A stretch of DNA of 64,000 bases from an uncultured archaeon (GTDB lineage: Archaea; Iainarchaeota; Iainarchaeia; Iainarchaeales; 1-14-0-10-31-34). Shown here one piece after another: positions 26,596-59,962 of the stretch. Below the pieces are notes generated by a model that saw nothing but the letters and a program-made list of their open reading frames with translations, did no database searches and was not told where the DNA came from. Numbering within the stretch: the first letter of the stretch is position 1; each line of letters begins with the position of its first letter. The position numbers and the translations under genes are program-made. Where the stretch lies: positions 1,416 to 65,415 of the forward strand of contig CAYTYC010000004.1 of assembly GCA_964442255.1 (NCBI GenBank). Direction: 5' to 3'.

Positions 26596-29500
26596 TTAAT
26601 TGCCGGTGGTAATGCAGCTTCCTTCCCCGAGCCCGAGCTCGAACTGGTTCAGGCTTTTTTTGCCTGCAGGCGCATAATTCAGGAGCGCGGTTTCATTCCA
26701 GTAAAATCCCGCCTCTGTTGCCGTGTCCTCCATGCAAACTTTTCCTTCTTCCACCAATTCAAACAGCTGTTCCAGTGCCTCTATTCCATGGTTTTGCTGG
26801 TTTAACTCCATTCCCTGCAATCCGTTTAAAACCATGAAATCATTTATTGCCGTATCCGGGGAAAAGAATTTAAGTGAAGCAGGCTTCTGCGCCTTTAACT
26901 CCATATTGGTTTCAGTGGGCGTGTAGAGGATTGTTCCAAGGTATTCGGTTCCGGGAAGGCTTACGGGTTCCCAAACCGTTTTGTACGCGTACTGGAAATT
27001 CAGCGTGTCTTTGGATGTTGCCCGTGAATCCGCCTTGTAAACTATTGCCCTTTGCGCAGGAAGCCCCCCAAAATCATAGCACTGCCCAAGCCCTTTCCAG
27101 TAGGTTAAATTGTCCCCGGCACTTTTTCCTTTCCCTGTTTCTTCCACATGGTAGGCCGCGGTCAAGGGCTTTTCGCTTTTTGTTCCCTGCACTTTCATTA
27201 TCACAGGGGTTGCAAGCGACGGGCTGAAAACCATTCTTTTTTTGTTTCCCGCGCCGCTTATTGCAAGCAGTTTTCCCCTTGTATCTGTTTCCGAGTTCAG
27301 GTAAGCCAAATCCTTTTCTGTGGCTGTTTCCAGTTCAACTGAAGCCATTTCGGCCGGCTGCCTGGTTAAGGGCTCTGTTGAAACAATGTCCCTTGTTTTG
27401 CTTAACTGCACTTCTTCACCTGTGTAAGCGGTTCCATAGCCTATCCTGTCCTCATCTAAATACCCTAACCTGCCGTTGAAGGGGAGGTAGTAGAATATGC
27501 TGTTCGGGGAGGGCTTTTGCAGGCGCTGGAATTCCACTGAAACCGTTGCTTTTGGGTTTCCATCGGCAGTGAAAAGCGCCCAGTCGTCCGCGTAATCTAT
27601 TCCGATGTCCACGGCGTACAGCCCTGCGTCAGGCAGTTCGTATTCATCAAAGTACCTGTTCCTGAAGCTGAACCTTGTCCTGTCATTATAGTATGCACCT
27701 ATTTCCTGCATTGCCTCTGTTCCGACAGCGTCATCAAGTTCAAGTGAAGGAACCTGGAAAAAAGTGCTTGTGGAATAGTATTTCACGAAATCCTTCTGGA
27801 AGTCGGCGGAATACCCGTCCCTGATCAAATATGCCTTGAAGTGCATCAGGTCGTGCATTTCTTGGAGTACCTGTTTTATTTTCTCGGAATCCGTTGAAAC
27901 GCTTTGCCCGCCAAATTTCACGCTTTCCTGGTTAACCAATTCTCCCAAGGTTGGATCAAGGGCGTTCAGGTAAACGTTTAAGGGCTCAAGGTCGTTGAAA
28001 AAAACTGTGCTGGGCTCTATCCAGCAGTTTAGGCTGGCGCTTGAGGAGTTGTTCATTAAACTGAATTCAAAGTACTTGTCGTCCTGTTTGTCCCCTTCCG
28101 CAGTGAGGTGCTCCAGCTGTATCGAGCCGGTGTAAGGGGTTTCGCTTTCCGGAAGTTCTTCAAACCTGCAGCTTGCGGATGCCGTTGCCCCGTTTTTTCC
28201 TATTCCTGTTAATTTCTTTTCGCATTCCGTTTCCCCGTTGTATAGGTATTCAGCTTCTTCCGGAACATTTAGCCTGAACAAAACATTCACGTCCTGAGCC
28301 TCCCCTGTGTTGTTTTTTACCGTTGCGCTCAAAAGCGCGTCACCGCTTTCGCCCAGGGAATTCCCTATCTCGCTTATTCCGATTTTTTCTTCCGGAACGG
28401 AATGGCTTTTGGCTTCCGCGTTTTGTTTTGCGGCTTCACTTTCCCCCGGCAGGTCTGGGCAGGCAAAATCGTATCCGTTTTCTTTCATGAAATCATTTAA
28501 TTTCGCGATTCTTTTCCACATCATTATGCTGAACTGTGTTGCGTCGCAGTAAATTGCTTCCTCATTCCCGGAATCGCATTCATTCCATGCAATTGCCTTG
28601 TCTTCAAACCCCCAGTCCAGCTTTATTTTTGGCGTTATGCCTTCCCCTGTCCTGCCTTTGATTGTTCCGTCACCGGAAGCGCAGGCAAACTGGTTTTGCT
28701 CCAGTTCCGGCAGCTTTTGTTCTTCTACCCGGGTTATAAACCTTAAATGGAATTTTTGCGTTACCTGAAGCAGGCCAAGGTCTTTCACGTCAAACATTGA
28801 GAACTTTGCGTCCGGGTTTTTTCCGTAGCTTGTCGGGTCCGCGTGAATGTGCCTTCTTGCCTTAACAGTTAAAACGTCATAGGCCGGCTCCTTTTGGCCG
28901 AGGGAAATGTTCCTGAAAATCAGCCCAACCGTTTCTTCGCCTGGCGTCTCGGAAATTTCAGGAAGGGTTTCATCCCAGTTCGGCTCCACGTCAAGCACGT
29001 TTTTTCCGTGTTCGCTTAGGCTTAGCCCGTTCCAGTCCCTGGGAATGCCGTCTCCTCCAATGCCCCGCCCGCTGAGGTTTATTGTGTAATCCCCTAATTC
29101 GTTTGTTTCCGTTTCTTTGCAGGGGTCGCTGAGCCAGGCGATTATTTCAGGGATAAAAGAGGCGCCAATGCAGGCAATTCCCCACGGGCCGACACAGAAA
29201 CCCAGCCCAATTGCGCCAAATGCCTTTGCGGCAAAGCCGGCGACAGCCACCGAATATGCCGCTGCCACGTTTCCCGCAGCCACAACCCCCGCGTGTGCGG
29301 CGGTCCATTTTGCGAGTTTTCCCGTGTTTTTCTTTCTTGCCTCATCCCATGCGCACACGCTTGCCTTCACATTAACGGTTGTGAACACGTCACTGTTCAC
29401 AAGCGTTACCGCGTCCTTTGACTCGCCTTTAAGAAGCACATATTCGTAGTTGTTTGGGTTCACCAGCGAAAACGGCTCCTTGTCTTCCGGGTCAACCAGC

Positions 29501-33957: not shown

Positions 33958-33985
33958 CAGTTTTCAACCCTTTTTTCCGGCTTAA

Positions 33986-41290: not shown

Positions 41291-41473
41291 TGGTTTTACC
41301 TCGCAGAGTGAAGACCGTATATATTGTTCTTTGGACTCTTTTTATTACTTTCTTTCATTATGCCGCAGACTTTAGTGAACCTTTTTTTTAACAAAAAGGG
41401 CCTGAGGACTGAATTGTTATAAATAGAGTTTTGCCATTTAAAAGCCTTTGCCTTTCTTTTTGGGTGTTGGCGG

Positions 41474-47400: not shown

Positions 47401-49336
47401 GGTGCACGCCCGCTTCATTGAACCCCGAGCCCTTTGGAACCCTTAACTCGAGTTTTGCGGTGTATTTTCCCCCGGCATCCAGGAAATCCTCAGCCTGCAG
47501 GTTGCCTAACCACAATCCTTTCCACACGGCCTCAAACCTTTCAACCGCGCCGCTTAAAATTATTTCCTTTTCCATTACCGCGTCGTCCACCGCCTTGAAG
47601 GGCAGTGTCCTGTATGTTACGTATTCGTCTCCGCCAACCAAAAGGTAAACCGTTTTGTCCGCCCTTATGGAAGTGATTTCCTTTTTTCCGGTGGAGTCTG
47701 TCACTCCCCTCAAATTTGACAGTTCTTCGTCCGTGGAAGCGTCAAACACTTTTACTGTGACTCCCTGCAGCGCTGTTCCGGACTCGTTTTTCACGTTCAC
47801 TCTCACTGTTCCGCGGCCGATGCTTAACTGCAGAGTAACCTGTTTTACTTCCCTTTCCCTGAGGCTTACTTCTTTGTTGTTTCCCTGAAAGCCGGGTTTT
47901 TCCGCGTACACGATGTATGCGCCCGGCTGCACGCCCTCAAACCTGGCTGTTCCGTCAAAGCCTGTTGTAAGGACTTCCCCGACCAACGCGAATTCGTCCG
48001 CGGTTTTAAGCATTACCTTCACGTTTTCAACGGCTTCACCCTCTTCGTCCACCACCTTGGCCTCGATTGCCTGCTTAACCCCTTCCGGAACCGGCGTCAG
48101 TTCAACTGTAACTTCATCGTATACTTTTAGCCCGGCCAGGGTTTCCTTGTAGTAGCCGATTGCGTCAATGCTTGCATTGAATTCCTTGTCGTCCGCAACC
48201 GGAAATTCAACGGATCCCAAGGAATTAGTGTAGCGTTCGGTGAATATTCCGTCCCCGCTTTCAAATATTACTTCCGCCCTTTCAATTGCTTTCCCTGTTT
48301 CGGCGTCCAGAACCCTTACAGTTATTTCGCCGTTTACTCCTGCCCCAAGCATTATTTTCGGGAAGTGCTGGTAAAGGTTTCCGACAACTATTTCAACGTA
48401 TTCCTGTCCTTCTTTTTCGGAGTTAAAGCTTGCGTAATCCTTTGCGTTGTACGCGAAAACCCAGTAGGTTCCCTGGGAAATGCCTTCAATGAAGCAGCCT
48501 CCGCTGTAGTCTGTTTCGCAGAACCCCACGGAAATGCTTCCCCCCCTTTTCCTCAGGTTAACCGTTATTCCTTCCAATGGGCTGTCGTTTTCGTCCACAA
48601 CGTAAAAGTCAATGCTTCCTTTTTCTTCCCGGATTTCTTCTTTCAGGTAAATTGCCGGATTTGAGTCCTCCAATCCATAAGAGCAGGTGCCTTCGCATTC
48701 AAAGCCCGCCGGCTTTGCTGTAATCTTTCCGCAGTCTTCGGGCACGTCTTCCAAAGTCATCTGCCCGTTTGTCGTGGAAAGCCTTTCAAAAAACCCTTCG
48801 TTTTGCGAGCACGAGAATTCCGCGGCAATATAGCCTGTGTAAAGGGTCTGCGTGTTTCCCTTGTAGACCCTGAAAACAATTGTTTTCAGGCCCACTGCCT
48901 TCAATTCCACCAGTGTTTCCGTTTCGCTTAACGTGACTGTTTTTTCGGAGTAGCCTGTTGCGCTTACCGTGGCTTTTGCCTGTTTTCCTGCTTCGGCTTC
49001 AAATTTGATTGTTCCTTCCGCGTTTGTTGCGCCGGATTCCTTCATTTTGCCTTCAACGTATAGCGTGACCTTTGCGCCGGAAACAGGGTCAGCGCTTTCG
49101 TCCACAACTTTTATGAGATAGCTTGCGTTGAATCCCGGCAAACCGAATCCGAAGAAAAGGAAATATATTCCCATTGCAATGAGAACCCACATTAAAATGA
49201 ATAAAGGAAAGCTTGGAATGTTGCGGGACTCAAAAACGTCTATGAGCTTGAATACAGGGATTCCTTTCTTGTCCAATGCATCCATTAATCCGTAGTATTT
49301 GTCTTCCAGCCCGCGGTAAAAGTCCTTCAAGCCCAT
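41474..49336 (-). CDS. Giant surface protein 3 (2620 aa): the same N-module plus TM, CarboxypepD_reg-like repeats, a Tyr/Gly/Asn-rich prion-like tract, and coiled segments
   Basis: N-terminus MGLKDFYRGLEDKYYGLMDALDKKGIPVFKLIDVFESRNIPSFPLF. ~100-aa tract GYGMHQNYFGYNPLSTGAYYQNPNSYNNFY..YGGYQQPFYGGGYMDPAYSGLHGYG. The C-terminal part is partly alignable with giants 1 and 2 (FCDGAQYAVS). Confidence 0.85.
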   Translation of the reverse strand: MGLKDFYRGLEDKYYGLMDALDKKGIPVFKLIDVFESRNIPSFPLFILMWVLIAMGIYFLFFGFGLPGFNASYLIKVVDESADPVSGAKVTLYVEGKMKESGATNAEGTIKFEAEAGKQAKATVSATGYSEKTVTLSETETLVELKAVGLKTIVFRVYKGNTQTLYTGYIAAEFSCSQNEGFFERLSTTNGQMTLEDVPEDCGKITAKPAGFECEGTCSYGLEDSNPAIYLKEEIREEKGSIDFYVVDENDSPLEGITVNLRKRGGSISVGFCETDYSGGCFIEGISQGTYWVFAYNAKDYASFNSEKEGQEYVEIVVGNLYQHFPKIMLGAGVNGEITVRVLDAETGKAIERAEVIFESGDGIFTERYTNSLGSVEFPVADDKEFNASIDAIGYYKETLAGLKVYDEVTVELTPVPEGVKQAIEAKVVDEEGEAVENVKVMLKTADEFALVGEVLTTGFDGTARFEGVQPGAYIVYAEKPGFQGNNKEVSLREREVKQVTLQLSIGRGTVRVNVKNESGTALQGVTVKVFDASTDEELSNLRGVTDSTGKKEITSIRADKTVYLLVGGDEYVTYRTLPFKAVDDAVMEKEIILSGAVERFEAVWKGLWLGNLQAEDFLDAGGKYTAKLELRVPKGSGFNEAGVHLRTGKSADNTNNIIEKDSLHIKSATASDAVILKGTSYNPPKGHAVDSQHTTSGSAKWANIKWMDVDEGIMEIEAEIQVRDAARSGEKLEIHYRAWGERESVLRFPSDSVLGASKENSEKQALYARVKTEVYTLGPSNLCGKSFCSSFTMANIETGSETTVVESYPAEISGNYRLKFSLTSVGEEYSPDAKLEIKSENEGLKFGEYEVIDVTSAKSAGNADRFELTAPMGNISKGDTVQGWVNFKTMKEGTNNLNFQIVASGAGGENRVFSKNFRVKVEAVKEMELEMLPLMVVPFIKNNVILRFTDSGGKGIPGVRVDIKVNGEMAYSGVSDSEGVYTLTLERLEPGAELTIKAEKNGYKTVEQTVKLEPNVLSFTPEEITESLSVVEDFEVQRDVVVRSLTDLPLTIEAIEFSGDFTDYLRFRLLEQYVGAEIVKGLDYSIAFGLSLSPKGKALNEVRTVKGKILAYLANQETEKSFSIEVPIEVFIGLGGEVDDLECLVLTKEKWNILTGKETVGQSIVLINNCSVDGKSIALKNLQAKVLWNENPVGEFSVDADIQGSRRVDLTSKFRGLSESLPTNSETSLAFTFDPDVLKSAKGTARLIVQATNPTEQGLQEIKAEIEAEVSINDILECMEIRAIGSQRLEFGPYNLGYGMHQNYFGYNPLSTGAYYQNPNSYNNFYRLSNMDNPDWYSSSYYANTSIGSAGRSSDILYNNWNQLSFPYGGYQQPFYGGGYMDPAYSGLHGYGMANQGKFKAINNCGATVDIEVDSENLMVSPDSGTLEPKEETEFTVQPAYFFGEYPVHIRAGLAASEETKKDIDTLLYLVQSEYIRDYSDCITLNRRTFQFNSLFPKPQQGIITNTCFNQGVILKRDRPIKVEGLSFFESNLSDRGYREGAGVSAAGRTPTTIQEYLIADNVIIDEPPRTKIGPNGQATEEMVFSLIKVQDPTQYQKSVEKSIKDNVDPIGKLLRFRWELSDLYYRAWTPSMLKVYFTNRYGFEDYVPFRITVEDLWELASGLSGRVYYGNPDVSPEECIRNRFEFELGFTIDEYYFDGGTFKWKPSPPVLITERDAEKCGQQDRLRIWGQKAFEKDNIRVSFEEVDGGKNIELMVKKLGKTKGDMVGFEGSLHVKVIRPNPARVADVIMPFKVNVKGDGEGPGEWEDKTQDCYERVLDEANKRLDEIEGKADEIMKKLKECELPEEEKEKVRETVEEELGGLTPEERQAKIELLKQELREKIAGCEKEGAETGSGVITKYGFDRLLFEWDYGDLETLGKNICDSSVNENAMFCDGAQYAVSLDQKAKTIKEFTEKVENNDCIEDEWSETKVCEKNSNNLYRFAAAQKAITDDDPEGGRTQLAFFLDGETGRILRQPKPLRPSELEGVLDTEFAEAVLATAGDMPEEADATVERASRLLSEMKSAPAVDHLDIVAEVNTKGFTGDEIKTLKDLGAEQITGKYYVLTFNEFKAMHDRLENAMEDDRAACADWRSTPTTTYPPSGCCDALKENATVCRIAIIVEDDGKIAKAIDTPIAAQFLQKLYKGTSFKLGTRNKDFGEKEEEMKNEIIKKGKKVSGITTDEIDRLYNENITVNSYLMHEAYTKSLFGDFASTYKNIGGLGAPDTTLNGKNVEKLPPKEINAGEYKVNVNYLWGKAEEDKRKFEITFERLNLLKDIEGMEEYVKNFLFEMPFDGKVDGRFSSTPASSILPVTIYDYGVFTDNADSGAPEVELMDGAPLKTGVGGVMHFRVEFPQSLEETKTGTLLRIEKYGGTGGSGLIKYTPSNPVNIKAELEGGEKGKGFYYEITDISGHKVGEELEPMVEWLSAEGQFEDRIRNMAELCAGATEERHSVVISTEKSTGTTGLLALAFVPMKGQLKFSVLCSQGRAEASIVDFFNKNPREITHPGGTQPKEAVLSNANLSGETIKAMIDRIKNELVCFEPLDVRDGYATGLELSWNKEKVSTELKALLAKLEASK

Positions 49337-49443
49337 GCAATTCCTTCTGCAGAGTGAACCAATTAATTATTATGTAATGGTTTCTTTATTTATATATCTT
49401 TTTGTTGCCTTCCATTAATATTTCTTTTCTTTTTAAATGGGGT

Positions 49444-51318
49444 TTAATTTGGGTTTTCGTTGGGTGAACAGCCTCCCGGGCCCATATCTCCTATGTTTGC
49501 AGTTTCAAATAGGGAATAACAGGTCCACCCTTGGTTCGCATTGCATGCGGCTGTCGGGTTGTCTTTTGCGTCTTTGTCTAATGCGCAGGTGCCTGTATCC
49601 ACCCTTGCATAATAGTTTGGGTTGAATGGCTCAAATGTGTCCTTAAGCCTTATGTTGTATGCTACCCCTGTTTCGGCTTTATTTTTGTTGACAATATATT
49701 TTGGGTTTTTTTCCACAAACCTGAGGTTAACGGTTATCCTGTCCAGCTCTTCGCAGAATGCCTTCGGCTGATTTGTGAACCCTGTGCACTTAAATTCCGT
49801 TATATTTGGGTGGGTTATTTTGTCGTCTTCAGTGAGGAAAACCCCGACATCCTTATTGTAGGGGGTCATCGGACAGCCTGCATTTGTTTTGCCGTAGGGG
49901 TAATTTATGTTAAGGTAGTTTCCTTGCGTGGAGGGGGCCTGGGCTAAACTTATTTCAGAAGTGCTGACACTGTTTCCAGCCTGCTTAATTACTTTTGAGG
50001 GGGTTTGGTCAGTGGAAATGCTTATGCCGTAAAGAGGGCAGTTTTCCAGATATTCGTTCACGCCTGCTGCAAGTATGTCCCCCCCATTTATTTCCGTTCC
50101 GTTTCTTCCAATTAAAATATATCCGTCATCCTTGTCCGCGTTAAGGTATTCTCCCGTGTTATAATTTTCCACCGCAAGGTTGCAAAGCCTTCGCACAACC
50201 ATTTGTTTGATTGCATCCTCGGTAAGCATTGTGTCTGGCTCAAGGTTTCCTTGCACTTGGCTGAAAGACGCCTTGTCGCCTGGAAAGTAATAAAGGAAAA
50301 AATTCCCCACAATATCGCACATTCCAAGCGCTTTTAGTTCCTGGGTGCATGTTATGCCTGCTTGCATTATCTCTTCTGAGGGCGTGGTGGCAAACCTTTG
50401 GTCTCCCGGGCAGTATGCTCCGCTGCCTATTTCCTTTTCACTTGAGCTCAGGTAAGGGTGTTCGCGCCACCTGCAGCTGTCTATATCGCACAAGCCTAAA
50501 CGCATTTCCTCAAGTTCATTGTGAATGCGCGGGGAAAAAATTCCGTAGTTTTGTTTCCAAAGCGTGCCGGTTTCCCTGTTGTGCTCTATTGCCAGCGCCC
50601 TTGCCTCCGCAAACGCCTTGAATATTCTTACAGGCACGTAGATGCGCAGGTTTGTTCTCGGCATTATCGGCTCTTCTATCACCCGGTTTGTGCGAGTGTT
50701 TGTTACCTTTATTTTTGGGAACGCGTAATAGTCTTCAGCGCTCAGGTTTCTGGGATTCAGGTTAATGTAAAAGGTCCCAATGCATTTTTTGGGGTCGCCG
50801 TCTTCGCATCCCACGACCTCAATGAAGCTTTCTTTTGATTTGAGCATTTTATTCAATACTTCTTGAACTTTTCCCCTTTCCGCCTGGGTTGTTCCGGTAA
50901 GCTCTATCTGGAAAACCCCCACCTGCCTTTTGTACTGGTATCCTTTCACCAGCTCTTGGCTGAGAAAATATGTTAACGCCTGGGTGCTTTCATCTTTTTC
51001 GTTTTTCAGGCCAAAAAAAAAGGTTCTCGTGAACTGTTCCACCAATTCATCCCATGTGAGTTCCTGGAACGCAAAGCTTGCCCCGTTTGTGCTGAGCCAG
51101 TCCTCTATTTCAAACCTGACCTGGTAGTTGAAGAGCTGGATTGCGTCCGCCCTTGTCAAGTCCACGATTGCCTGCATTTCGCTTTGCTCTTCAATGTCTG
51201 AAATCAGCGCAAGCTTGTCTGCCTCCGCTTTCACCATGCTTTGCACAACGACAACACTCAAAACAATCAGCACAAAAGCCACCAATGCGGTGAACAAGGT
51301 GAAGGCTTTTTCTTTCAT
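49444..51318 (-). CDS. Large (624 aa) pilin-like protein with an archaeal class III (prepilin) signal peptide; Cys-rich globular body
   Basis: N-terminus MKEKA|FTLFTALVAFVLIVLSVVVV: a K-A at -2/-1 followed by a ~20-aa hydrophobic stretch, as in PibD/FlaK substrates. At least 8 Cys pairs. Embedded between giants 3 and 4. Confidence 0.6.
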   Translation of the reverse strand: MKEKAFTLFTALVAFVLIVLSVVVVQSMVKAEADKLALISDIEEQSEMQAIVDLTRADAIQLFNYQVRFEIEDWLSTNGASFAFQELTWDELVEQFTRTFFFGLKNEKDESTQALTYFLSQELVKGYQYKRQVGVFQIELTGTTQAERGKVQEVLNKMLKSKESFIEVVGCEDGDPKKCIGTFYINLNPRNLSAEDYYAFPKIKVTNTRTNRVIEEPIMPRTNLRIYVPVRIFKAFAEARALAIEHNRETGTLWKQNYGIFSPRIHNELEEMRLGLCDIDSCRWREHPYLSSSEKEIGSGAYCPGDQRFATTPSEEIMQAGITCTQELKALGMCDIVGNFFLYYFPGDKASFSQVQGNLEPDTMLTEDAIKQMVVRRLCNLAVENYNTGEYLNADKDDGYILIGRNGTEINGGDILAAGVNEYLENCPLYGISISTDQTPSKVIKQAGNSVSTSEISLAQAPSTQGNYLNINYPYGKTNAGCPMTPYNKDVGVFLTEDDKITHPNITEFKCTGFTNQPKAFCEELDRITVNLRFVEKNPKYIVNKNKAETGVAYNIRLKDTFEPFNPNYYARVDTGTCALDKDAKDNPTAACNANQGWTCYSLFETANIGDMGPGGCSPNENPN

Positions 51319-51333
51319 CAGCTAAAACCTTTC

Positions 51334-54300
51334 CTAAGAGACTGCGCCTTCAATTGATTTGCCCTCGTTTTTGGCAATGCTGCCCATTTTGCTTAACACT
51401 GTTGTGGAGTATTCTATTGCGGCGTTTTTGATGATTTTGCATTTTTCTATTGCCCCTGTGCCCCCGTGGTATGCCCCTATCGCCAATGCAAGGGGGTCGT
51501 CGCAGCCCTTTATGTCATCTTGCTGCAGCAGGTGCTTCACAATATCTGTTCCGACTTCAATGTTTACGGTCTCATCAAACCACAATTCTTTTGGAATTGC
51601 CTTGCCTTTTCCTTTGTAGTTTACCCTTGCAGGAAATGTCTTAACTCCCGGAACTTCAATTATCATTGTGCCTGTGTCACGGTAGCCGTAAGTGTCTTCC
51701 CCGTCTTTTGCGTACTTTTTGACTGAAGGCAGGCTTGTGTCGTTGAACCAGTAAGGCATTATCTGCATTAACCCCGTTGCCCCTGTTTCCGTGTTTACCG
51801 CAAACCTGTTTCCGCTGCTTTCGGTTTCAATAATGCTTTTAATCAAGTCCTCGCTTACTCCCGCGGCCTTTGACGCGCTTTTGGTTTTCGCATCCTGGCT
51901 TGAGGTTGTCCTGTTTATTTCCATTTCCTTTGCTTCAAATTCGTTCCCGCACTTGTCCAGCCTGTTGCTTGTGCTTTGGATTTCGTCACTGCTTGTCACC
52001 AGCCAGAACTGCAGGCACTTGTCTTTTCCTTCCAGATGCCTTACCCCGTAAGTGAAGTTTTTCTGGAACTCGAATTCTTTGGCTGTAAGCTCAACCGGCA
52101 CTCCGTTTATGGTTTGCAGCCCGGTTGGTTCGCAGTATCCTCCCGGGCTTTGCACTCCTTCCGCGCCCCAATACCATTTGAATGCCTCGTATCCCGCGGC
52201 TTCTCCCGCCGCCAGGCACCCGAATCCGCGGATGAATCTTGAAAGGTTTGGGTGGTTTGCCCAGAGCCTTCTCCACCTGCTCACTTCCGCGGCTTCTCCC
52301 CGCACAATCCATTTCTTGCTTTTTCCGACCTTTTTTGCTACGTCTTCAAGCCCGTCTGCCGCTGTTGTGTAGTTCCTGTTTCCAACCTGGTCCGTGACTG
52401 TTTTCATGGACTTCCTGATGCTTTTTTCCCCGTCCATGTTTGTGTGGTCCAAAATTTCCTTGAGCTCGCTTGCCTCCCTGTTCAGGTTGCTTATCACCGC
52501 GTTCCTTGCGTCATCCACTGCAACCGTTCCAACCAAGTCCCCTTCCTTCAGCAAGCCTTTTTTTACCAGGTCGTCTACAACCCCTTGGTGGGCTCTTGAA
52601 GCGTTTTTAAGCCTTCCCGCTTCGTCCACCAGGTTGTCGTACTGGGTTTGCATTTGGGGGCTGATTGCCTGCCTCCCCCTCCCTTGGGTTAAGTTATCCA
52701 TCTGTGTTTTTAGGGCTGCTTCCTGTTTTTCAAGGGATTCAAGGCCTATTCCTGTGTTGTCAATCAGGGTGAATTTTCCCCCCGCATCCGCTGTTATATT
52801 CATGTACTGTCTTCCGGTTACCGGGTCGGTGAAACCGCCAAGCTTGGCGTTAATCCCTGACGCCACTTTTGCCCCGCCCTGCAGGCTTTCAAGCCTGCCT
52901 TTGATTGCGTCTTTGGCAAACTCTGACGGCGCCAGAACCTGGTCAACGCCAGGGCGAATTGTTTTCCATGCCTGCCTTGTGCCCCCTGTGGCCAGGCTGG
53001 TTGAAACCATGTCTTCAATGATTTCTTTTCCCGTGTCATCCAAATTTCCCACCAAAAAGTCAGGCAGCCAGGAGTTCCCTCCCTCGGCTTTAACCGCTTC
53101 ATCAAGTATGAGCTTTTCCTCCCCTTTAACGAAGTTAACCAAATCCTTTATCTTGCCCCACGTGAAGTCCACGATTTTGTCAAAGCTCAAGTCAACGTTC
53201 AAGTATTCTTTAATCAGGCCTACCGCTACAGGCGGCCCGCAGGTGAGCAGCAGGCAGTCCACAACCGCGCCCGGAATAAACCCCAGCTTTGTAATTACGG
53301 CGCACCCTCCGCAGCCCACAAAGCATCCTGCACCCCATGCGGCTATGGACGTCACCCTTTTGCTGCTCTCCGCCTTAATGAGTTCGCTTTTCGGGTCAGT
53401 TAATTTGTTTTTCCTTAACTGCGAGTACACGTCAGCCAAGTTTACCTTGTCGTCCCCGCCGTCCCACACAAGTGTCGCGTAATAAGGCTCTTCTCCCACA
53501 GGAGTCTTGTATGCTTCCTCCAAAAACTCTAATGGAGTCAAACCGCACAGCATTAAGTCTATTTCCCTGAATTCTTCCATTGAATAAGGTCCATGCAGGT
53601 CCTCTGCCTTCAATTTAATGCTTTTTTCGGTTGCCTCCTGGAAGTCCGCCCCTCCCCTGATGCACAACTGGAAGTGATAATAGTAGCGCTTGCTTGCCTT
53701 GTCAAACTTTGCCAAATTAACCGTAAAATCGCGGTCTGTTTCAGTCAGCCTGAATGCAGGCTTTTCGCCTTTCCTTTCATATTCCCAGACAATTTTTTCC
53801 CCTGTTTTGGCTTCCTCGCCTTCCTTCGGCGCCTCTGTTTTTTCCGCAGTTTTTGCAGTTGTCTTAACCTGTTTTGCGCTTGCATCCCACACTTCAATGT
53901 ACTCCAGCCCAGGAATTTTCGCGCTGTCTTCATCAAACACCAAGTCAAATTCCCCTGAGGAAAGGTTTGACAGCACTCCATTAACGCAGGTTTCCTGCAT
54001 TGAAACCTGCATGCTTCCCGGAACCTCCAAACGCGGAACAAATTCTTCAACCCTTTCTGCGCTGCTTACAACAAAAAAGCTTTCATCCCTTGAAATGCAC
54101 GCATCACCCAGCTTTGAATTCCATAGGTTTCCCAGAATTCTTGCGGTTTCCTCTATCAGCTTGTCTTCCCCGCCTTCAACGCTTTCCGAGGCTTCAACTG
54201 ATTTCCTGCTTACCGTGACATACACTTTTTTCGGGTTTTCAGCCGAAAAACCCGGCTTCACTTCAATCTTCATCAGCCCGTTGAAGGGCACTTCCCCCAA

Positions 54301-57300
54301 CTCCAGTTCAACCGTGTTTCTGCTTCCCCCCCCGCCGAGCCGGCCCTCGCTTTTTCCGAAAAGCTTTTCCGCAAACTTTTCCTCAAATTTTTTGGTTGAA
54401 GAATCTTTTCCGTCAACCATTGTCAGCCAGCTTTCGTATGCGGACTCTGAATTGTATTTTTTGTCCAAAGGCAAAAAGTTCGGGGCATTCTGCGCAACGC
54501 TCTTGCATTCAGGGGTTTCATCGGCGTCAACCAGCCTGAACACGACAACAATTGATTCGGTGTCCAGCCTGTCTCCTTCAACCCCCACCGCGCCTGTTGT
54601 CGTCAGCTTGTATCTTCCGCATCCCGCCAAATCCCCGGGAATGTAAATCCTGCTCAAAAGCCCGATTCCTGCAACCCCAAAATCGCCTTCCCCGTACCTT
54701 ACATCAAAGTTTTCAAACTCGCTTGACTTTAAATCGTCGATTTCTTTTTTCAGCATTTCCCTGCTCAAATTGTCGTGCGAAAGGAAAACCTCCAGGCTGT
54801 CTGCCTGAATGTTCATTGACTCAAACGTGCAGTAGCCCTGCCTTGGGTCGCAGCCCTGAACATTTAATGTGGTGTTTGCGAGTTCGGTTACCCTTCTCTT
54901 TGCCTGCACTATCTTGTCTTTTGCCTTCTTTGCGATGTAACCCGCCATTCCCTGCGCGTCACAGTATCCTTCATGGCAGTCTGTTGAAAGCTTGGGGAAG
55001 CTTATTTTTTTTGTTTCAGAGTCCCGGTCCTCGCATATTGGCACCTCTATTTCAGGCATTGCCCTGCATTTTCCGCCGGAACAGCTTGTCGCGCTTTCCC
55101 CCACCTTCAATGAAATGTTCACGGGCTCTGATTTAATGAGTTCGCGTGTCACCTGCCCTACTCCCAGAACGGAAACAGGCCTGCTTACGTCAATGCTTTC
55201 TGAAGGGTAAACAGTTAATTCGAAATCGTCCCTGCCTGTCTGGGGCGGCAGCACTTCCCCGTCCGGGTAAATTTCAATGTAATTGTTTCCAATGTACTTG
55301 GGCTCCATTTCCCCTATCACAACGGGTTCCTGGCAAAAGTTTTTGATGCTAACAAAGCGGGTGATTGCCTCAAACGACTTTTTTGTGTCTGTCTCAAAAT
55401 TCAATGGCTCCCCGGGAAGGGTTTGAAGGGAGAGGCAGTGCCAGTCCGACACATGGAAGTAAACCGGAACGCTCCAAAGGTTTGTGTAGTGCCTGCCCTC
55501 AATGTTTCCGTTTATAACAAGGTTTCCGAGATGGGTTGAGCTTTTTTCAGTGTTTGCTGTTGCCACAACGTATGCGGGGGGAATGGATTGCCCTTTTTTC
55601 AGCAAAGGAAACTCGTTCCTTGGCTCTATTTTGACGTCCACTCCCGGAATGTGCTGCTCCAATGCCATTGTAATCTCTGAAACATCCGCGTTTCCGCGGT
55701 TTGAAATGAACAGCATTGCCCTGCCTATCCCTGTTTTTTGCCTTTGGCTTTGAGTAATCCATATGTGCAGGTTGTCGGGCACAAACAACGCAATCTTTGG
55801 GTTCCATAAAATGATTTTCAGGGGAATGCTTTTACTTATCTGCGGGCTTTTAAAGAACACATCATAGTTGTACTGCTGCTGGAGGTCAAACATCGTGGGG
55901 AAAGTGCTCACCAGCTCCAAACTGTACTGGTGGGGTTTTCCGTCCGCCTCCAAACGGAAGGTTCCAGCGTAAACCTCAACCCCCGGCGCCTCTTTTCCTT
56001 TTGGAAGGGCTTCCGGGGAAAAATTCAATGGAACCCCGCAATTGTTTTTCATCAGGATGTCCAAAGTTTTCCGGTTTCCCTCCGCCCCGACCAGGTAAGC
56101 CTGGAGTTCGCTTGAGTCAAACTCCAAACAGCTTTCCTTGAGCCTTTGATTGTAGTTAACCTTTACCCTTGTTTTTGCGGCTACAACGTATTCCCCGTTC
56201 ACGAGCCCCGTGAATTCAACGTCTGCCTCGCCGTGCACTATTTTTTCCTCGTTTCCCGTGTATTCCGCGGTGAACCCAATTTTTCCTGTTTCCCTTGGGC
56301 CTAATTCCGCCGGGGGAAGCGCGCTTAAAATGAGTTCATCCGGCCAGTTTTTCGCGGGAACCACTTCAGCCGCAATCCCGCTCACCGGAAGGGTTAAGGT
56401 GTTCCTTATTGTTTCCTCAATTCTCACAACCTTTTCCCCGAAAGGCATGTTCAACAAAATTTTTTCCTCAATCTTTAATCCTTCTTTTGCCCCGACCATG
56501 AACCCTTTTTCCACGGGCCTGAATCCCGGTGCCTCAATTCTTGCGGCGTATTTTCCGGGTTCCAGTGAATTCTTGAACCTGTACACCCCGTCCCTTCCGT
56601 TTCCGGTTGAGCCGTCCCCAAGCATTTCCGCAGCGGTTTCCCCGTCAGCCGAAATTATCCGGATTTTCGCGTTTTCCACCGGCCTTCCAAGGGAATCCTT
56701 AAGCGTTATTTTGATTTCTTCTCCCGCATTCACGAAATCCTCCAGCTCAATGTCCAGTTCCGCTTCCCTGAACACAGCGAAAAACAATTCATCTTCAATG
56801 CCTTCGTTTCCTAATTTGGCTTCGCTTCTGATGAAGGCCTCCCCTTCCTTTATTCCCTTGAAATAGAATCTCGCGGTTTTAGGGGTTCCCCGTGAAAGCG
56901 AAATGTTGTTTGCGGTGAGCGCCTGCAAAGGGTTTTCGTTGTCCGCAAAATTGGATGCGCCTGAAAGGCTGTAGGAAGTGAAAACAACTTTTGGCACGGA
57001 GTCAGATGTTGAAACCCTCAAATTGACTGAAAGGTTTTCCGCTGCCACCATTTCCGCTTCAAGCGCGTACACTTCGCCCAAGCCCGCGGAAAACTCTTTT
57101 TCCCCGAACCTTCCGCCTTCTTTTGTCAAAAACATGTGGGTTATGCACAGTTTTTCCTTGCACAACGGCTCGGACTCAAACACGCTTACTTTTTCTGAAA
57201 TTGTTTCCGCATACAACGCGGATTTTTCCCTGCTTACTTTTTCGCTTCCCAGCACCTGGTCTTCGGGAGTCCGGGCAGTTAGGCCGTTGAATTCCGCCCA

Positions 57301-59529
57301 CGTGCGGTAGTTTACTTCAAAGCTCTCTTCCCCAAAGCCTTCCCTTGCCTTCACCCTTGCCCTCACAATTTTTGTTCCGCCCGGGTTTTCAAAGTAAAGC
57401 TCCAGAAACTTGCTGAATTCCCCTGCTTCTCCCTCGTTTCTCCTGTCAATGGACTCGTTTCCGGGCGAAGGAAAGGGCTGGTATGTCTGGCCGAAGAAAA
57501 AGTTGTCCGCAACCGCGTCAAATCCCGTCACTCCAACCGTGTCGGATTCAATGTAAGGGACCGTGTCGTTTCCCACGCGCACATGCATTCCGCCTTTGTA
57601 TTCGCCTTCAATCCACTGCGTTTCAAATTCAAGGTAATAGTCTTTTCCTTTCACTATTCCTTTCACTTCGTTTCCGTCCTCGTCCAGTATCCTTGCAAGC
57701 CTTATCTTCGGCTTTAATTCAAGGTGCTGTTCTTTGTTCAATTCCATTTCCAGTTCCCTGTTTTTCCCTATCTGCCTTAATTCCGAGTGCGTTGTCCCGT
57801 CGGGCAGCGAAACCTCCACCACCGCCTCATTGTAGCCTATTGAGTCAAACACAACTGACCCCTCTTCGATTGGGCCGTCAAACAATACTGTGCCGTCTTT
57901 TGCGCTGACCAAAACGTTTCCGTCTTCAATCACATTCCCGTTTTCGTCCTTCAACACCAGCGTTTTCACGGTGTCAGGCACCTTTAACTGGATTATCAGC
58001 TCATTCAGTTCCGGTTCAATTGTTTTCTGCGCCTCCCCTTTTTCCAGTTTCCAGAACCCTTTTACCCTGATGTTTTTTCCTGCTTCCATGGTGGTTTCAT
58101 GGCTTCCGTCCAGCCCTGTGCTCGCAATTCCCAGGCCCAAGGGAAACTCTTCCTGTTCTTCCCCTTTTAGTTCATAGAACTGCAGGGTTGCATTCACCGC
58201 GGGCTTTTGCCCGGAGGTTATGGCGTGCACAATCAGTTCAGCCGAATTTTCAATTGTCGCCTTTTTCAATTCAATGTCCGCGCTTTCCTGCGCCAACGGA
58301 ATCACTTCAATCACTTTTGGAAGGTAGCCTTCCTTCACGGCGCCGATGAAGTATTTTTCGTTGACGTTCAGTCCCCCGAATTCCACGAAGCCCCCGAAGC
58401 CGGTTTCCTTTGTTTCCAGCACCTTGTTTTCCAAGCCGTAAAGAGTCACTTCCGCGGAGTGCAAAAGGGTTTTTGTGTCTTCGTCCATTACTGCGACAGT
58501 AAATTGTTCTCCGCCTTTTTCCAGGAAAATTTCTTTCACTGTTTCCTCTCCGCGCAATGTAACAAACTCTTCCTCTGAATCCTCGTATCTCACATACCCG
58601 TCCTTTTCAACACTTACCATTACCACTGTGCCTTTTTTCAGGTAACTTGAATAGATTCCGTCGTCGTCTTCCTCCGATTCATCCAGTTTCTTGAAGCTTT
58701 CCCCGTCAAAAATTCTGATGTTTGCGCCTTCCACCAGGCTTTTTGTTTCCGAGTCAAACACTTTTACTATCAAATTGGTTTCGCCCTGGAGTTCCGCGGG
58801 TTTCGGCGCAAGGGAAATTGTCCTTAACTCCGTTGACTCAAAGCGGATTTTCTGGCTTAAATCCTCATACGAATCGGCGGTGACCTCAACCAGTATTTCC
58901 TCTTTTTTAGGCAGGTTCACCAGTTCCGCGATTCCGTCTCCTCCGCTTACCGCGTTCCTTACCTCGGCCTTCCAGCTTGCCGTCACCAAAACGCCTTCAA
59001 TTGCCGTGTCTTTTTCCGAGTCAATGAACCGCAGCTTTCCGTTGATGTAGCCGGTTTCCATTCTTTCAAGGAAAAGGTTTGCGGTTACGTTCACCGAATC
59101 CAGGTCAAGCAGTTCCGAGTCTTTTTTAAATCCCTCTTTTTCCGCTTCCACGGTTACAGTGCTTCCGATTGGAATTCCTTCAAGCAGTATCGCTCCGCCG
59201 TTTGACCCGGGTTCAGGGCCGTAAATGGTTTTCCCGGTTTCGTTTTTCACGGAAACCATCGCCCCGCTAAGCCCTTTTCCTTCGTCGTCCACGATGTTCA
59301 TCGCGATTGAAACGTTTGCCGCCGCAAAATTAAAGTAAAAAAACCCAAGCAAAATGAACAGGATTATCGCAATCAATGCGATGAACACAGGGAAAAAGGG
59401 AATTCCGCGGTTCTCGAACAGGTCAACGATTTTGTATACCGGCAATCCCTTGTCGTCCAGGAAATCCATTCCCGCATAGAATTTGTCCTCTATTTTTGCG
59501 TACACTTCCGCAAGCTTGCCTGAAATCAA
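51334..59529 (-). CDS. Giant surface protein 4 (2731 aa): the same N-module plus TM, CarboxypepD_reg-like repeats, coiled region, and a C-terminal family-1 lytic transglycosylase (SLT/GH23) domain; TTG start
   Basis: N-terminus (TTG)ISGKLAEVYAKIEDKFYAGMDFLDDKGLPVYKIVDLFENRGIPFFPVF plus TM. C-terminus ..ETESSGNRFAVNTETGATGLMQIMPYW...AIGAYHGGTG matches the SLT catalytic motif (ES..N..A.S..GA.GLMQIMP...AYNAG). Confidence 0.85.
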   Translation of the reverse strand: MISGKLAEVYAKIEDKFYAGMDFLDDKGLPVYKIVDLFENRGIPFFPVFIALIAIILFILLGFFYFNFAAANVSIAMNIVDDEGKGLSGAMVSVKNETGKTIYGPEPGSNGGAILLEGIPIGSTVTVEAEKEGFKKDSELLDLDSVNVTANLFLERMETGYINGKLRFIDSEKDTAIEGVLVTASWKAEVRNAVSGGDGIAELVNLPKKEEILVEVTADSYEDLSQKIRFESTELRTISLAPKPAELQGETNLIVKVFDSETKSLVEGANIRIFDGESFKKLDESEEDDDGIYSSYLKKGTVVMVSVEKDGYVRYEDSEEEFVTLRGEETVKEIFLEKGGEQFTVAVMDEDTKTLLHSAEVTLYGLENKVLETKETGFGGFVEFGGLNVNEKYFIGAVKEGYLPKVIEVIPLAQESADIELKKATIENSAELIVHAITSGQKPAVNATLQFYELKGEEQEEFPLGLGIASTGLDGSHETTMEAGKNIRVKGFWKLEKGEAQKTIEPELNELIIQLKVPDTVKTLVLKDENGNVIEDGNVLVSAKDGTVLFDGPIEEGSVVFDSIGYNEAVVEVSLPDGTTHSELRQIGKNRELEMELNKEQHLELKPKIRLARILDEDGNEVKGIVKGKDYYLEFETQWIEGEYKGGMHVRVGNDTVPYIESDTVGVTGFDAVADNFFFGQTYQPFPSPGNESIDRRNEGEAGEFSKFLELYFENPGGTKIVRARVKAREGFGEESFEVNYRTWAEFNGLTARTPEDQVLGSEKVSREKSALYAETISEKVSVFESEPLCKEKLCITHMFLTKEGGRFGEKEFSAGLGEVYALEAEMVAAENLSVNLRVSTSDSVPKVVFTSYSLSGASNFADNENPLQALTANNISLSRGTPKTARFYFKGIKEGEAFIRSEAKLGNEGIEDELFFAVFREAELDIELEDFVNAGEEIKITLKDSLGRPVENAKIRIISADGETAAEMLGDGSTGNGRDGVYRFKNSLEPGKYAARIEAPGFRPVEKGFMVGAKEGLKIEEKILLNMPFGEKVVRIEETIRNTLTLPVSGIAAEVVPAKNWPDELILSALPPAELGPRETGKIGFTAEYTGNEEKIVHGEADVEFTGLVNGEYVVAAKTRVKVNYNQRLKESCLEFDSSELQAYLVGAEGNRKTLDILMKNNCGVPLNFSPEALPKGKEAPGVEVYAGTFRLEADGKPHQYSLELVSTFPTMFDLQQQYNYDVFFKSPQISKSIPLKIILWNPKIALFVPDNLHIWITQSQRQKTGIGRAMLFISNRGNADVSEITMALEQHIPGVDVKIEPRNEFPLLKKGQSIPPAYVVATANTEKSSTHLGNLVINGNIEGRHYTNLWSVPVYFHVSDWHCLSLQTLPGEPLNFETDTKKSFEAITRFVSIKNFCQEPVVIGEMEPKYIGNNYIEIYPDGEVLPPQTGRDDFELTVYPSESIDVSRPVSVLGVGQVTRELIKSEPVNISLKVGESATSCSGGKCRAMPEIEVPICEDRDSETKKISFPKLSTDCHEGYCDAQGMAGYIAKKAKDKIVQAKRRVTELANTTLNVQGCDPRQGYCTFESMNIQADSLEVFLSHDNLSREMLKKEIDDLKSSEFENFDVRYGEGDFGVAGIGLLSRIYIPGDLAGCGRYKLTTTGAVGVEGDRLDTESIVVVFRLVDADETPECKSVAQNAPNFLPLDKKYNSESAYESWLTMVDGKDSSTKKFEEKFAEKLFGKSEGRLGGGGSRNTVELELGEVPFNGLMKIEVKPGFSAENPKKVYVTVSRKSVEASESVEGGEDKLIEETARILGNLWNSKLGDACISRDESFFVVSSAERVEEFVPRLEVPGSMQVSMQETCVNGVLSNLSSGEFDLVFDEDSAKIPGLEYIEVWDASAKQVKTTAKTAEKTEAPKEGEEAKTGEKIVWEYERKGEKPAFRLTETDRDFTVNLAKFDKASKRYYYHFQLCIRGGADFQEATEKSIKLKAEDLHGPYSMEEFREIDLMLCGLTPLEFLEEAYKTPVGEEPYYATLVWDGGDDKVNLADVYSQLRKNKLTDPKSELIKAESSKRVTSIAAWGAGCFVGCGGCAVITKLGFIPGAVVDCLLLTCGPPVAVGLIKEYLNVDLSFDKIVDFTWGKIKDLVNFVKGEEKLILDEAVKAEGGNSWLPDFLVGNLDDTGKEIIEDMVSTSLATGGTRQAWKTIRPGVDQVLAPSEFAKDAIKGRLESLQGGAKVASGINAKLGGFTDPVTGRQYMNITADAGGKFTLIDNTGIGLESLEKQEAALKTQMDNLTQGRGRQAISPQMQTQYDNLVDEAGRLKNASRAHQGVVDDLVKKGLLKEGDLVGTVAVDDARNAVISNLNREASELKEILDHTNMDGEKSIRKSMKTVTDQVGNRNYTTAADGLEDVAKKVGKSKKWIVRGEAAEVSRWRRLWANHPNLSRFIRGFGCLAAGEAAGYEAFKWYWGAEGVQSPGGYCEPTGLQTINGVPVELTAKEFEFQKNFTYGVRHLEGKDKCLQFWLVTSSDEIQSTSNRLDKCGNEFEAKEMEINRTTSSQDAKTKSASKAAGVSEDLIKSIIETESSGNRFAVNTETGATGLMQIMPYWFNDTSLPSVKKYAKDGEDTYGYRDTGTMIIEVPGVKTFPARVNYKGKGKAIPKELWFDETVNIEVGTDIVKHLLQQDDIKGCDDPLALAIGAYHGGTGAIEKCKIIKNAAIEYSTTVLSKMGSIAKNEGKSIEGAVS
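51337..51870 (-). other. SLT (soluble lytic transglycosylase, GH23) catalytic domain at the C-terminus of giant protein 4
   Basis: E-S catalytic dyad context ..IIETESSGNRF.., the GLMQIMP motif, and the downstream AYHGG motif. Confidence 0.75.
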
Positions 59530-59647: not shown

Positions 59648-59962
59648 TTAAATTGTAATGCCGCTTTTCAGGGCTTCGCTTACAATGGAAACCTGCCTGC
59701 TCAATTTTTTGAATTCTTCCGGGGTGTAGCAGAGGAAGTCAACCGGATAATCTAAACGCCAGTGCCTGTGCAGGCCTTCTGCTCTTCCGAATTTTTTTCT
59801 CTTAAAATAAGGGGAAACAATTATTAGGTCTACATCGCTGTCTTTGCGGTGCCTTTTCCCTGCCCTTGAACCAAATAAAATGACCCTTTCCACTTTCCTT
59901 TTTTCAGATACCTCTTTTTTGAATTTTTCTATCCCTTTGATTAAAGCTTCTCTTTCGCCCAT
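59648..59962 (-). CDS. Nucleotidyltransferase (MNT) antitoxin-like protein
   Basis: ILFGSRAGKRHRKDSDVDLIIV matches the minimal nucleotidyltransferase motif G[SG]..x9-13 D.D; 104 aa. Confidence 0.7.
   Translation of the reverse strand: MGEREALIKGIEKFKKEVSEKRKVERVILFGSRAGKRHRKDSDVDLIIVSPYFKRKKFGRAEGLHRHWRLDYPVDFLCYTPEEFKKLSRQVSIVSEALKSGITI

Follow-up and report, generated by a model that had tools for sequence, protein, structure and literature searches.

We analysed a window of 64,000 nucleotides (nt) from an uncultured Iainarchaeota archaeon (contig CAYTYC010000004.1, positions 1,416–65,415, of assembly GCA_964442255.1; all coordinates below are window positions). About half of it, an island of ∼33 kb at 26596–59529, is taken up by four giant genes, here called G1 to G4, which encode putative membrane-anchored surface proteins, and by a smaller gene, M. 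Read in the direction of transcription, the island contains the following open reading frames (ORFs; lengths in amino acids, aa):

51334–59529, minus strand: G4, giant ORF of 2731 aa with a TTG start
49444–51318, minus strand: M, 624 aa, Cys-rich, with a prepilin-like N-terminus, starting 15 nt after G4
41474–49336, minus strand: G3, giant ORF of 2620 aa
33986–41290, minus strand: G2, giant ORF of 2434 aa
26596–33957, minus strand: G1, giant ORF of 2453 aa, starting 28 nt past the end of G2

An earlier, sequence-only reading of this DNA had described four co-directional giants of 2434–2731 aa, and the ORF listing bears this out; it had overlooked M between G3 and G4. The four giant ORFs are genuine coding genes. 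In relative synonymous codon usage they resemble the housekeeping genes of the window (PolB, HisRS, TrkH, MetAP and others), with a correlation of r = 0.93 as against 0.50 for a shifted frame, GC content is even over the region, and a repeat comparison of the window revealed no long DNA repeats between the giant genes at which an assembler could have gone astray. The N-termini of the G4 orthologues (MISEKLGTVYSALEEKYY...) back the TTG start of this gene, and G2 is identical to an NCBI protein encoded on a 69.5-kb contig (P0001), where identical proteins are on record. Together with the codon usage and the absence of long repeats, the recurrence of the same gene order in many independent assemblies rules out both non-coding frames and an assembly chimera, the two doubts that had attached to the island. 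A provirus or other integrated element would suit the unusual length of the genes and the toxin–antitoxin pairs in or beside the cluster, but the giants have protein-level orthologues in hundreds of independent assemblies and an identical chromosomal position in many genomes. A viral origin was dropped because no relative was found among 2.9 million viral contigs (IMG/VR). We therefore regard an artefact or a mobile element as excluded.

All four giants start with the consensus MGLKDxYYxLEDKWYxxLDKID..IPVYK, followed at ∼aa 40–70 by a single strongly hydrophobic helix that is present in 96 of 100 full-length family representatives; hydrophobicity and alignment thus agree with the conserved N-terminus and single transmembrane helix that had been proposed for each. 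Conservation within the family is highest over the first 50 residues (53% identity to G1 over ten homologues), which points to a common anchoring or export partner. Downstream of the helix, an iterated profile built from Pfam matches detected three to five CarboxypepD_reg-type domains per giant, all before aa ∼1090. The Pfam family itself (PF13620) scores 65, 65.8, 122.8 and 76.6 bits in G1, G2, G3 and G4 respectively, against a cut-off of 32.3; Big_1 and SpaA (prealbumin-like fold) are above cut-off in some of the four, and MG-type and other β-sandwich families are mostly sub-threshold. The remaining ∼1300–1600 aa of each giant have no Pfam match, except for an SLT domain in G4, and NCBIfam and PHROGs likewise gave nothing outside the stalk and the SLT domain. 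The sequence therefore supports N-terminally anchored, mostly extracellular proteins with a β-sandwich stalk, but the β-sandwich repeats, which pass the Pfam gathering score in all four, are limited to the first ∼1100 aa and do not fill the 2300+ residues once assigned to them. Ser and Thr at ∼6% each, an ordinary composition and the lack of long tandem repeats separate the giants from halomucin-type proteins, which are very long, mucin-like, sugar-binding and repetitive, with much Ser and Thr; the comparison was one of composition and description. One further element of the stalk is peculiar to G2:

39863–40258, minus strand: Asp-rich repeats of G2 (aa 345–476), four Cys-bracketed units of CDNGxDDDxDGxxDxDDxDC, calcium-binding type

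A DNA tandem repeat of 75–78 nt underlies these units, and they alone account for short matches of 40–50% identity to unrelated proteins of 1400–2800 aa, a few of them with bacterial names.

BLASTP aligned the first 1300–1400 residues of G1, G2 and G3 with one another at 25–28% identity, and the last ∼400 residues of G1 and G2 at 37%. The N-terminal ∼90 residues of G4 match G3 (40%), and ∼250 residues of its stalk match G2 (24%); over all aligned stretches, identity among the four paralogues is 23–40%. Each has orthologues of its own in other genomes: full-length orthologues of G1 (P0003 and P0006) are 29% identical over 2530 aa, and those of G4 (P0073–P0077) align as far as ∼aa 2100 and diverge beyond. 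Judged from these alignments the four giants are ancient paralogues, and the separate orthologues lend no support to recent tandem paralogy.

The DNA upstream of the giants had been credited with a CTSTGCRGA motif before three of the four start codons. Exact copies precede only G3 and G4, with a near match at G2. The three matches in the window compare with 1.2 expected, a count that was reached in 11 of 100 shuffles, and CTSTGC was found within 45 nt upstream of none of 44 orthologous giant genes in other genomes. We therefore rejected it as a shared regulatory element. Similarly, the claim of a TATA-like element before each gene probably does not hold for G1: G1 and M, which start 28 and 15 nt after the preceding gene, are probably co-transcribed with it instead of having a TATA box of their own. 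A 12-mer, TTCACTCTGCRR, is common to G2 and G3 at −11 to −22 from the start (41301–41312 and 49347–49358, minus strand), just downstream of TATA-like AT-rich boxes; its count is not significant (two found, 1.07 expected) and it was not seen in other genomes.

We then considered the distribution of the family. An exhaustive profile search of public data yielded 815 representatives at 50% identity, typically of 2300–2700 aa. Relatives of 2000–2800 aa are annotated at most as ‘carboxypeptidase-like regulatory domain-containing protein’ or by the names Candidatus Iainarchaeum or Diapherotrites. A scan of GTDB, with one genome per species, gave 111 matches, of which 69 loci were kept; these are titled Candidatus Iainarchaeum, Diapherotrites or ‘archaeon’, the exceptions being two probably mis-binned bacterial bins. 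The distribution of matches supports the DPANN origin anticipated for this DNA, and the family is essentially confined to Iainarchaeota. Family-bearing contigs have been binned as Falkowbacteria (L010), Chloroflexi (L059) and Izemoplasmatales (P0008), probably by mis-binning.

The giants are part of a larger cluster whose gene order is repeated in dozens of Iainarchaeota/Diapherotrites genomes, among them the complete 1.24-Mb genome of AR10: a divergent T2SSE ATPase gene, an archaeosortase-like gene, G4, M, G3, G2, G1 and a row of small polytopic membrane proteins. The order from G4 through M, G3, G2 and G1 to the small proteins was seen in loci L001, L003, L005, L076 and L077. The members that flank the island in the window are:

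62423–64000, plus strand: 5′ part of a T2SSE-type assembly ATPase gene (type II/IV secretion, type IV pilus), PilB/FlaI-type, divergent from the giants and running off the window
60340–60915, minus strand: small membrane protein of the archaeosortase/exosortase family, co-oriented, upstream of G4
26112–26483, minus strand: s123, small polytopic membrane protein, first of five after G1
25795–26115, minus strand: s106, with four hydrophobic stretches, a distant relative of s123
25539–25790, minus strand: s83, small membrane protein whose best orthologues are 56–63% identical
25214–25534, minus strand: s131, small membrane protein with a Gly-rich tail, its start placed at the MDTF methionine used by orthologues
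24836–25213, minus strand: s125, small membrane protein ending in a hydrophilic tail; its conservation is lower than that of the other four

Linkage around G4 was counted in a metagenome scan for G4-type genes, in which 22 complete orthologues were recovered. A divergent T2SSE gene was present in 18 of the 22 loci with at least 5 kb upstream of the G4-type gene. That of the window scores 31 bits in Pfam (cut-off 24.9) and is 64–69% identical to the T2SSE genes divergent from the G4-types of L076 and L077; in L076 it is followed by a gene for the T2SSF platform and then by a row of small proteins, four of which have a prepilin-like start, ..KGQ. The archaeosortase-like gene (TIGR04178 in NCBIfam, 38.4 bits against a cut-off of 23) has orthologues directly upstream of the G4-types in L076 (41% identity), L077 (39%) and L078 (Pfam Exosortase_EpsH), and 31 of the 42 loci that extend at least 1.3 kb upstream have a co-oriented gene of this kind. 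The giants and M have no C-terminal archaeosortase signal, i.e. motif, transmembrane helix and basic cluster; they end hydrophilic, with a conserved Cys near the end.

At the other end of the cluster, tblastn against 75 loci detected s123 and s106 in 44 each, s83 in 42, s131 in 41 and s125 in 12–13. Where enough DNA was available, s123 and s106 directly followed the G1-type gene in 42 of 61 loci, s123 lying at a median gap of 124 nt from the last head-bearing giant, and all four conserved small proteins were present after the G1-type gene in 26 of 36. None of the small membrane proteins matches a Pfam family, and the s106 family has no relative in the PDB. The MNxKG start of s106 raised the possibility that it is a pilin, which was rejected; the four hydrophobic stretches in its ∼106 aa, seen in an alignment of 15 orthologues, indicate a compact polytopic protein.

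An M-like gene follows 18 of the 19 complete G4-types with enough downstream DNA. The N-terminus of M resembles that of class III prepilins (MKEKA followed by FTLFTALVAFVLIV), with a basic leader, Ala at −1 and a hydrophobic helix (MKEKA followed by FTLFTALVAFVLIVLSVVVV); its orthologues begin KGFNLF or KGFTLF and continue into a hydrophobic helix, and residues 3–44 show a weak match to the ComGF pilin (E = 0.0075). The ∼590-residue body of M has no match in Pfam, PHROGs or PDB. M is linked to the T2SSE, T2SSF and small pilin genes by position alone, and we consider it a type IV pilin-like protein and a putative component of a filament. Modular pilins are known, such as PilB of Streptococcus sanguinis, and the combination in M of a prepilin N-terminus with a ∼590-aa module, seen here in genes alone, resembles a pilin of the PilB type. 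The giants themselves compare less well with class III signals: their leader is ∼40 aa long and highly conserved, the residues before the helix read [KR][GNA][IVL]P.FP in G4- and G3-types, which places Pro at +2, and G1- and G2-types have Val at −1.

After the N-terminus, the best-conserved stretch of the family is a head of ∼700 residues:

26599–28800, minus strand: conserved head of G1 (aa 1720–2453), with the YCDATQFS motif, modelled with AlphaFold2

The model, made from 52 sequences, has a mean predicted local distance difference test score (pLDDT) of 88.4 and a predicted template modelling score of 0.80. Its elements follow one another as Cys-/Trp-rich entry strands, a helical hairpin immediately after YCDATQFS, an inserted immunoglobulin (Ig)-like domain, an α/β part and a large β-sandwich; as modelled, the head is built partly of lectin-like and Ig-like β-sandwiches. 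The model has no global fold match in the PDB or BFVD, including the three-domain fold with fusion loops of the HAP2/fusexin class II fusogens, and the 52-sequence profile found no relative among PDB sequences. Together with the negative searches of Pfam, NCBIfam and PHROGs, this upholds the view that no characterised family covers the architecture. The alignment of heads contains invariant residues, among them those of YCDATQFS. The heads had been called distinct, variable and distal. In fact those of G1 and G2 are 37% identical, the C-terminal region of G3 is weakly related to them, G4 and its orthologues have a GYCDA-Q motif that resembles YCDATQFS, and the heads of G1-, G2- and G3-types are more conserved than the stalks.

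Heads and anchors that are conserved above the stalks would suit an S-layer-like canopy, in which the N-terminal helices anchor the giants, the heads interlock in a lattice held at a fixed distance on the stalks, and the small membrane proteins form the base. Such a canopy would also be consistent with a fixed set of four orthologous paralogues, kept phylum-wide and syntenic beside housekeeping genes, with the absence of another S-layer candidate in the window, and with a cluster of ∼33 kb in genomes such as that of AR10 at 1.24 Mb. However, no S-layer family in Pfam or NCBIfam matches the giants, and N-x-S/T sequons are not enriched in them (0.4–0.8 per 100 aa). The usual archaeal S-layer protein has a C-terminal anchor arrangement, whereas the anchor of the giants is N-terminal and they lack an archaeosortase-type C-terminal signal. 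The variable, murein hydrolase-bearing tip of G4, a mid-chain hydrophobic hairpin and a vWA-type insertion, all described below, are features of proteins that interact more than of proteins that build a lattice. We consider an S-layer function, of a new kind, the main rival to the reading favoured below, though on balance unlikely.

Between stalk and head, some of the giants contain a second hydrophobic segment:

29125–29298, minus strand: hairpin of G1 (aa 1554–1611), Ala/Gly-rich, ending ..DPC, a putative membrane hairpin
53200–53355, minus strand: hairpin of G4 (aa 2059–2110), Ala/Gly/Cys-rich, a putative membrane hairpin

In G1- and G4-types the segment is 30–80 residues long, rich in Ala and Gly, with conserved Cys residues, and in G1-types it often ends ..DPC; the signal is weak in G2, and G3-types have no hairpin. 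At least 44 of the 100 full-length representatives carry a hydrophobic segment of at least 30 aa, made up of Ala to 18% and of Gly to 16%, and the distance from the hairpin to the downstream YCDATQF motif has a median of 201 aa. The Kyte–Doolittle maximum over 19 aa is 1.94 in G4, which has equivalents in the orthologues P0073, P0074, P0076 and P0077; hydrophobicity reaches 2.56 at the hairpin of P0003, and several orthologues attain the level of true transmembrane segments. The sole model that covers the hairpin (G1 aa 1400–2453, seven sequences) has a pLDDT of 46 and is unreliable. If two helices do form a hairpin here, stalk and head would lie on the same side of the membrane. In one homologue (P0011), an insertion with a vWA-type DTSGS metal site replaces the hydrophobic segment ahead of the head, which suggests that modules may be exchanged at this position.

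G4 differs from the other giants at its end. Its leader and transmembrane helix are followed by the β-sandwich stalk, a family-specific middle, the hairpin, ∼320 aa without a match, and a recognisable enzymatic tip:

51415–51885, minus strand: SLT domain (family-1 lytic transglycosylase, GH23, PF01464), G4 aa ∼2549–2705, Pfam

The domain was detected with E = 5.9e-12 when all of G4 was searched and with 1.7e-13 when the C-terminus was searched alone (45.6–50.6 bits; cut-off 21.3), and alignment with MltC of E. coli revealed all three family-1 motifs, ETESS, GLMQI and AYHGG. The endolysin and lytic tail protein families of PHROGs match the same stretch; as these matches are confined to the SLT part, a tape-measure-like tail of G4 was discarded. 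None of the 22 other complete orthologues in the metagenome scan has an SLT domain, i.e. it is present in one of 23 complete G4-types including that of the window, and no recognisable function could be assigned to the tips of the other members. The last ∼600 residues of G4 orthologues are divergent, and a subset ends in a different, Cys-containing C-terminal domain of ∼150 residues that is not detectably related to SLT. We also examined, and rejected, a degenerate lysozyme-like tip (VPEALL...) in all G4 orthologues, which had no Pfam match and an hhalign probability of 0.1% against the SLT domain of the window. Because the SLT domain is found only in G4 of the window and the ends of the orthologues diverge, G4 is, on the evidence of these alignments, a conserved scaffold with an exchangeable tip. 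In this organism the tip is a putative peptidoglycan cutter, which hints at a bacterial partner; the partner or prey is probably a bacterium.

The presence of a wall-cutting domain and a hairpin on one protein, G4, invites a bolder proposal, that the giants bridge two membranes. The N-terminal helix would sit in the membrane of the archaeon and, once a pilus had drawn the cells together and the G4 tip had opened the wall, the Ala/Gly-rich hairpin would insert into the membrane of the other cell like a fusion peptide or a glycine-zipper pore former, leaving a channel or cytoplasmic bridge for nutrient uptake. The tape-measure protein Pb2 of phage T5 combines hydrophobic segments with muralytic and membrane activity. 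The length of the hairpin (30–80 aa), its GxxxG patterns in an Ala/Gly-rich composition, the conserved Cys, the conserved distance to the head motif and its occurrence in at least 44 of 100 full-length representatives would all be in keeping with this. But the hairpin may simply serve the archaeon as a further anchor in its own membrane, or lie buried in the fold, it is missing in G3-types and weak in G2, the tape-measure families of PHROGs give no match, and the argument is one of composition and analogy. We therefore think membrane insertion, and the channel or bridge that would result from it, improbable.

A different use for an SLT domain would be that of a VirB1 equivalent in DNA transfer, by a conjugation-like type IV secretion system (T4SS) or a Ced/Ted-like system. 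This draws attention to the next conserved gene beyond the small membrane proteins:

22496–23995, minus strand: p499, HerA-like P-loop protein with a degenerate Walker A; its association with the cluster is uncertain

In such a system p499 would be the motor, the small membrane proteins the pilin or channel, and the giants mating adhesins. A profile of eight p499 orthologues does match Sulfolobus HerA (4d2i; E = 1.8e-4), four to five small hydrophobic proteins adjoin the gene, and an SLT domain lies within the cluster. However, the match of p499 to Pfam DUF87 (E = 0.0027) is below cut-off, and its P-loop position reads GGTPxDRKH instead of the GxxGxGKS of a HerA/VirB4-type Walker A. Of the 36 loci that extend at least 5 kb downstream, 26 have p499 (40–43% identity), always before PolB, and it may thus belong to replication or repair. 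The window contains no gene of VirB6, VirD4 or relaxase type, Pfam links none of the small proteins to a pilin or T4SS family, s106 has no PDB relative, and SLT is missing from the other genomes. For M, p499 and the small membrane proteins, Pfam, NCBIfam, PHROGs and PDB sequences gave no match other than the weak ones to ComGF and HerA. DNA transfer is accordingly very improbable, and p499 may be a pseudo-ATPase either of replication and repair or of the surface cluster.

The reading that we favour, with a probability of about one in two, is that this conserved cell-surface cluster encodes a cell-contact apparatus linked to pili across Iainarchaeota. Each giant would be exported with its N-terminus in the cytoplasm and held in the cell's own membrane by the signal-anchor helix behind the conserved ∼40-residue cytoplasmic leader. 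Outside the cell would lie a stalk of ∼1100 residues with its three to five CarboxypepD_reg domains, the family-specific middle and the conserved head of ∼700 residues. The four giants may combine with the small membrane proteins into long fibrils, a fixed and hetero-oligomeric set with its root in a membrane complex, which would explain both why the leader is so highly conserved and why the four have one-to-one orthologues. The pili and the modular pilin M would be the first to touch a partner cell or a surface and would draw the cell towards it, the heads would then bind it, and in this organism the tip of G4 would cut peptidoglycan locally. The contact structure that the sequence-only reading had proposed for the giants is thus plausible in view of the SLT domain at the end of G4 and of the pilus genes beside the cluster; the function itself is one that we infer.

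Several observations weigh against a contact apparatus. The conservation of the head above the stalk fits a structural or self-interacting element better than a receptor tip for varied partners, and the absence of SLT from all 22 other orthologues means that peptidoglycan cleavage is not a general role of the family. Because the giants have no C-terminal sorting signal, the role of the archaeosortase-like gene is unaccounted for. Synteny in these small genomes is strong out to PolB and MetAP, so that the linkage to pilus genes may partly reflect it, which weakens any functional reading of mere adjacency. Finally, Diapherotrites have been suggested to be free-living, according to passages of one report (PMC8784108).

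Large surface proteins have been described in other small-genome organisms. Passages of Castelle et al. (2021; PMC8204110) report large extracellular lytic-transglycosylase proteins in DPANN, with a proposed role in attachment to the bacterial wall. At up to ∼3000 aa, extracellular and SLT-type, these are proteins whose description G4 fits, and the idea of such proteins in DPANN is thus not a wholly new one. They were, however, reported in those passages from other DPANN phyla, whereas the present family is essentially limited to Iainarchaeota. Nothing in the same passages speaks of a cluster of four paralogues, a partner resembling a pilin, small membrane proteins or a head. Unlike the proteins in these passages (PMC8204110), the giants of G4-type carry SLT exceptionally, in one of 23 complete members; fam00969 and G4 were compared by description.

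The SPEARE proteins of Nanohaloarchaeota (Hamm et al., 2019; PMC6642349) are very long, single-pass and mostly extracytoplasmic, carry adhesion domains and account for several per cent of a ∼1-Mb genome. They have been proposed to act in host contact and pore formation, and one version is N-terminally anchored like the giants. Most are anchored near the C-terminus, and they contain serine protease, laminin-G and cytoplasmic restriction-endonuclease domains, whereas our Pfam results contain no serine protease, laminin-G or type III restriction endonuclease domain in the giants. Passages on Apilactobacillus kunkeei (PMC12863079) describe five consecutive genes, Giant1–5, for surface proteins of 3000–8000 aa that make up ∼6% of a 1.5-Mb genome. 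This is likewise a tandem island of giant surface proteins in a small genome, but in a Gram-positive bacterium, and no sequence relationship was seen with what those passages describe. Omnitrophota archaeovorins and other giants, some with SLT domains, have been interpreted as equipment to bind prey cell walls and break them down (West-Roberts et al., 2023, bioRxiv 10.1101/2023.11.21.568195). They too come from ultrasmall, host-dependent cells, but are bacterial, more than 10 times larger and enzyme-rich, as opposed to one enzymatic domain in the four giants here. Passages of two studies connect pili with attachment in ultrasmall episymbionts: in Saccharibacteria it is type IV pili that set off the episymbiosis with the bacterial host (PMC9894109), and a pilus system is tied to host attachment (PMC11623550). 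The likeness lies in attachment by pili; the giants themselves, with Pro at +2 or Val at −1, fit the prepilin pattern less well. In the literature we found no description of the giant family with its head, leader and hairpin, of its restriction to Iainarchaeota or its four-paralogue organisation, or of its linkage to M, the small membrane proteins, the archaeosortase-like gene and a pilus operon.

Some further features of the region deserve mention. A HEPN/nucleotidyltransferase pair lies at 59648–60294 (minus strand), between the archaeosortase-like gene and G4, and small inserts occupy other junctions elsewhere: MazE/PIN in L005 (18332–18905), a HicB-like gene in L001 (20332–20589) and an unannotated pair of 85 and 92 aa in L076 (18229–18765). 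Such modules appear to land preferentially at the junctions between genes of the cluster. On the opposite strand (24075–24791, plus strand), flanked by the small membrane proteins and p499, is a gene for a 238-aa protein with a conserved N-terminus of ∼50 residues followed by an acidic low-complexity region, present in 31 of 75 loci. The 168-aa protein p168 (21960–22466, minus strand) has a signal peptide and a C-terminal PEIS, transmembrane helix and RKK tail, i.e. an archaeosortase-type signal, and signal-peptide proteins with PETN–transmembrane–basic tails are encoded in L004 (24556–25785) and L007 (21016–22446). Because the corresponding genes of L001 and AR10 encode unrelated coiled-coil proteins, we rejected the idea of p168 as a sortase substrate conserved between genomes. 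A 159-aa ORF between MetAP and PolB (18507–18986, minus strand), with a weak match to a CARDB-type β-sandwich (E = 0.0075, below cut-off), may be another small surface protein.

The PolB (family B DNA polymerase) gene of the window (19027–21471, minus strand) is without an intein, whereas its orthologue in L001 (23612–27304) has one with LAGLIDADG, as does the T2SSE orthologue of L077 (3764–7582). A LAGLIDADG homing-endonuclease ORF (10090–11121, plus strand) ends inside a tRNA-Ser on the opposite strand (11084–11172). Rfam detected a 92-nt tRNA at 6642–6733 (minus strand) that ARAGORN missed and that is therefore probably intron-containing; a 68-nt tRNA-Ala called by ARAGORN (15543–15610, minus strand) was not confirmed by Rfam.

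How DPANN archaea attach and feed is largely unknown, and for Iainarchaeota the very existence of hosts is unsettled. If the giants did insert into a partner membrane, they would provide a physical bridge supplying reduced archaea with what they are unable to make themselves, a candidate molecular basis for cytoplasmic contact between DPANN cells and their hosts, and a new class of membrane-inserting proteins. The head, a large domain for which the model is confident and neither PDB nor BFVD has a global match, is a specific target for antibodies, labelling in cryo-electron tomography and biochemistry, and the mid-chain hydrophobic hairpin, unusual in a surface fibre, is a second. The SLT tip offers a concrete and testable hint at a bacterial partner. 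Conserved in order and content throughout the phylum and tied to pilus genes, the cluster is a prime candidate for the contact or envelope machinery of this lineage.

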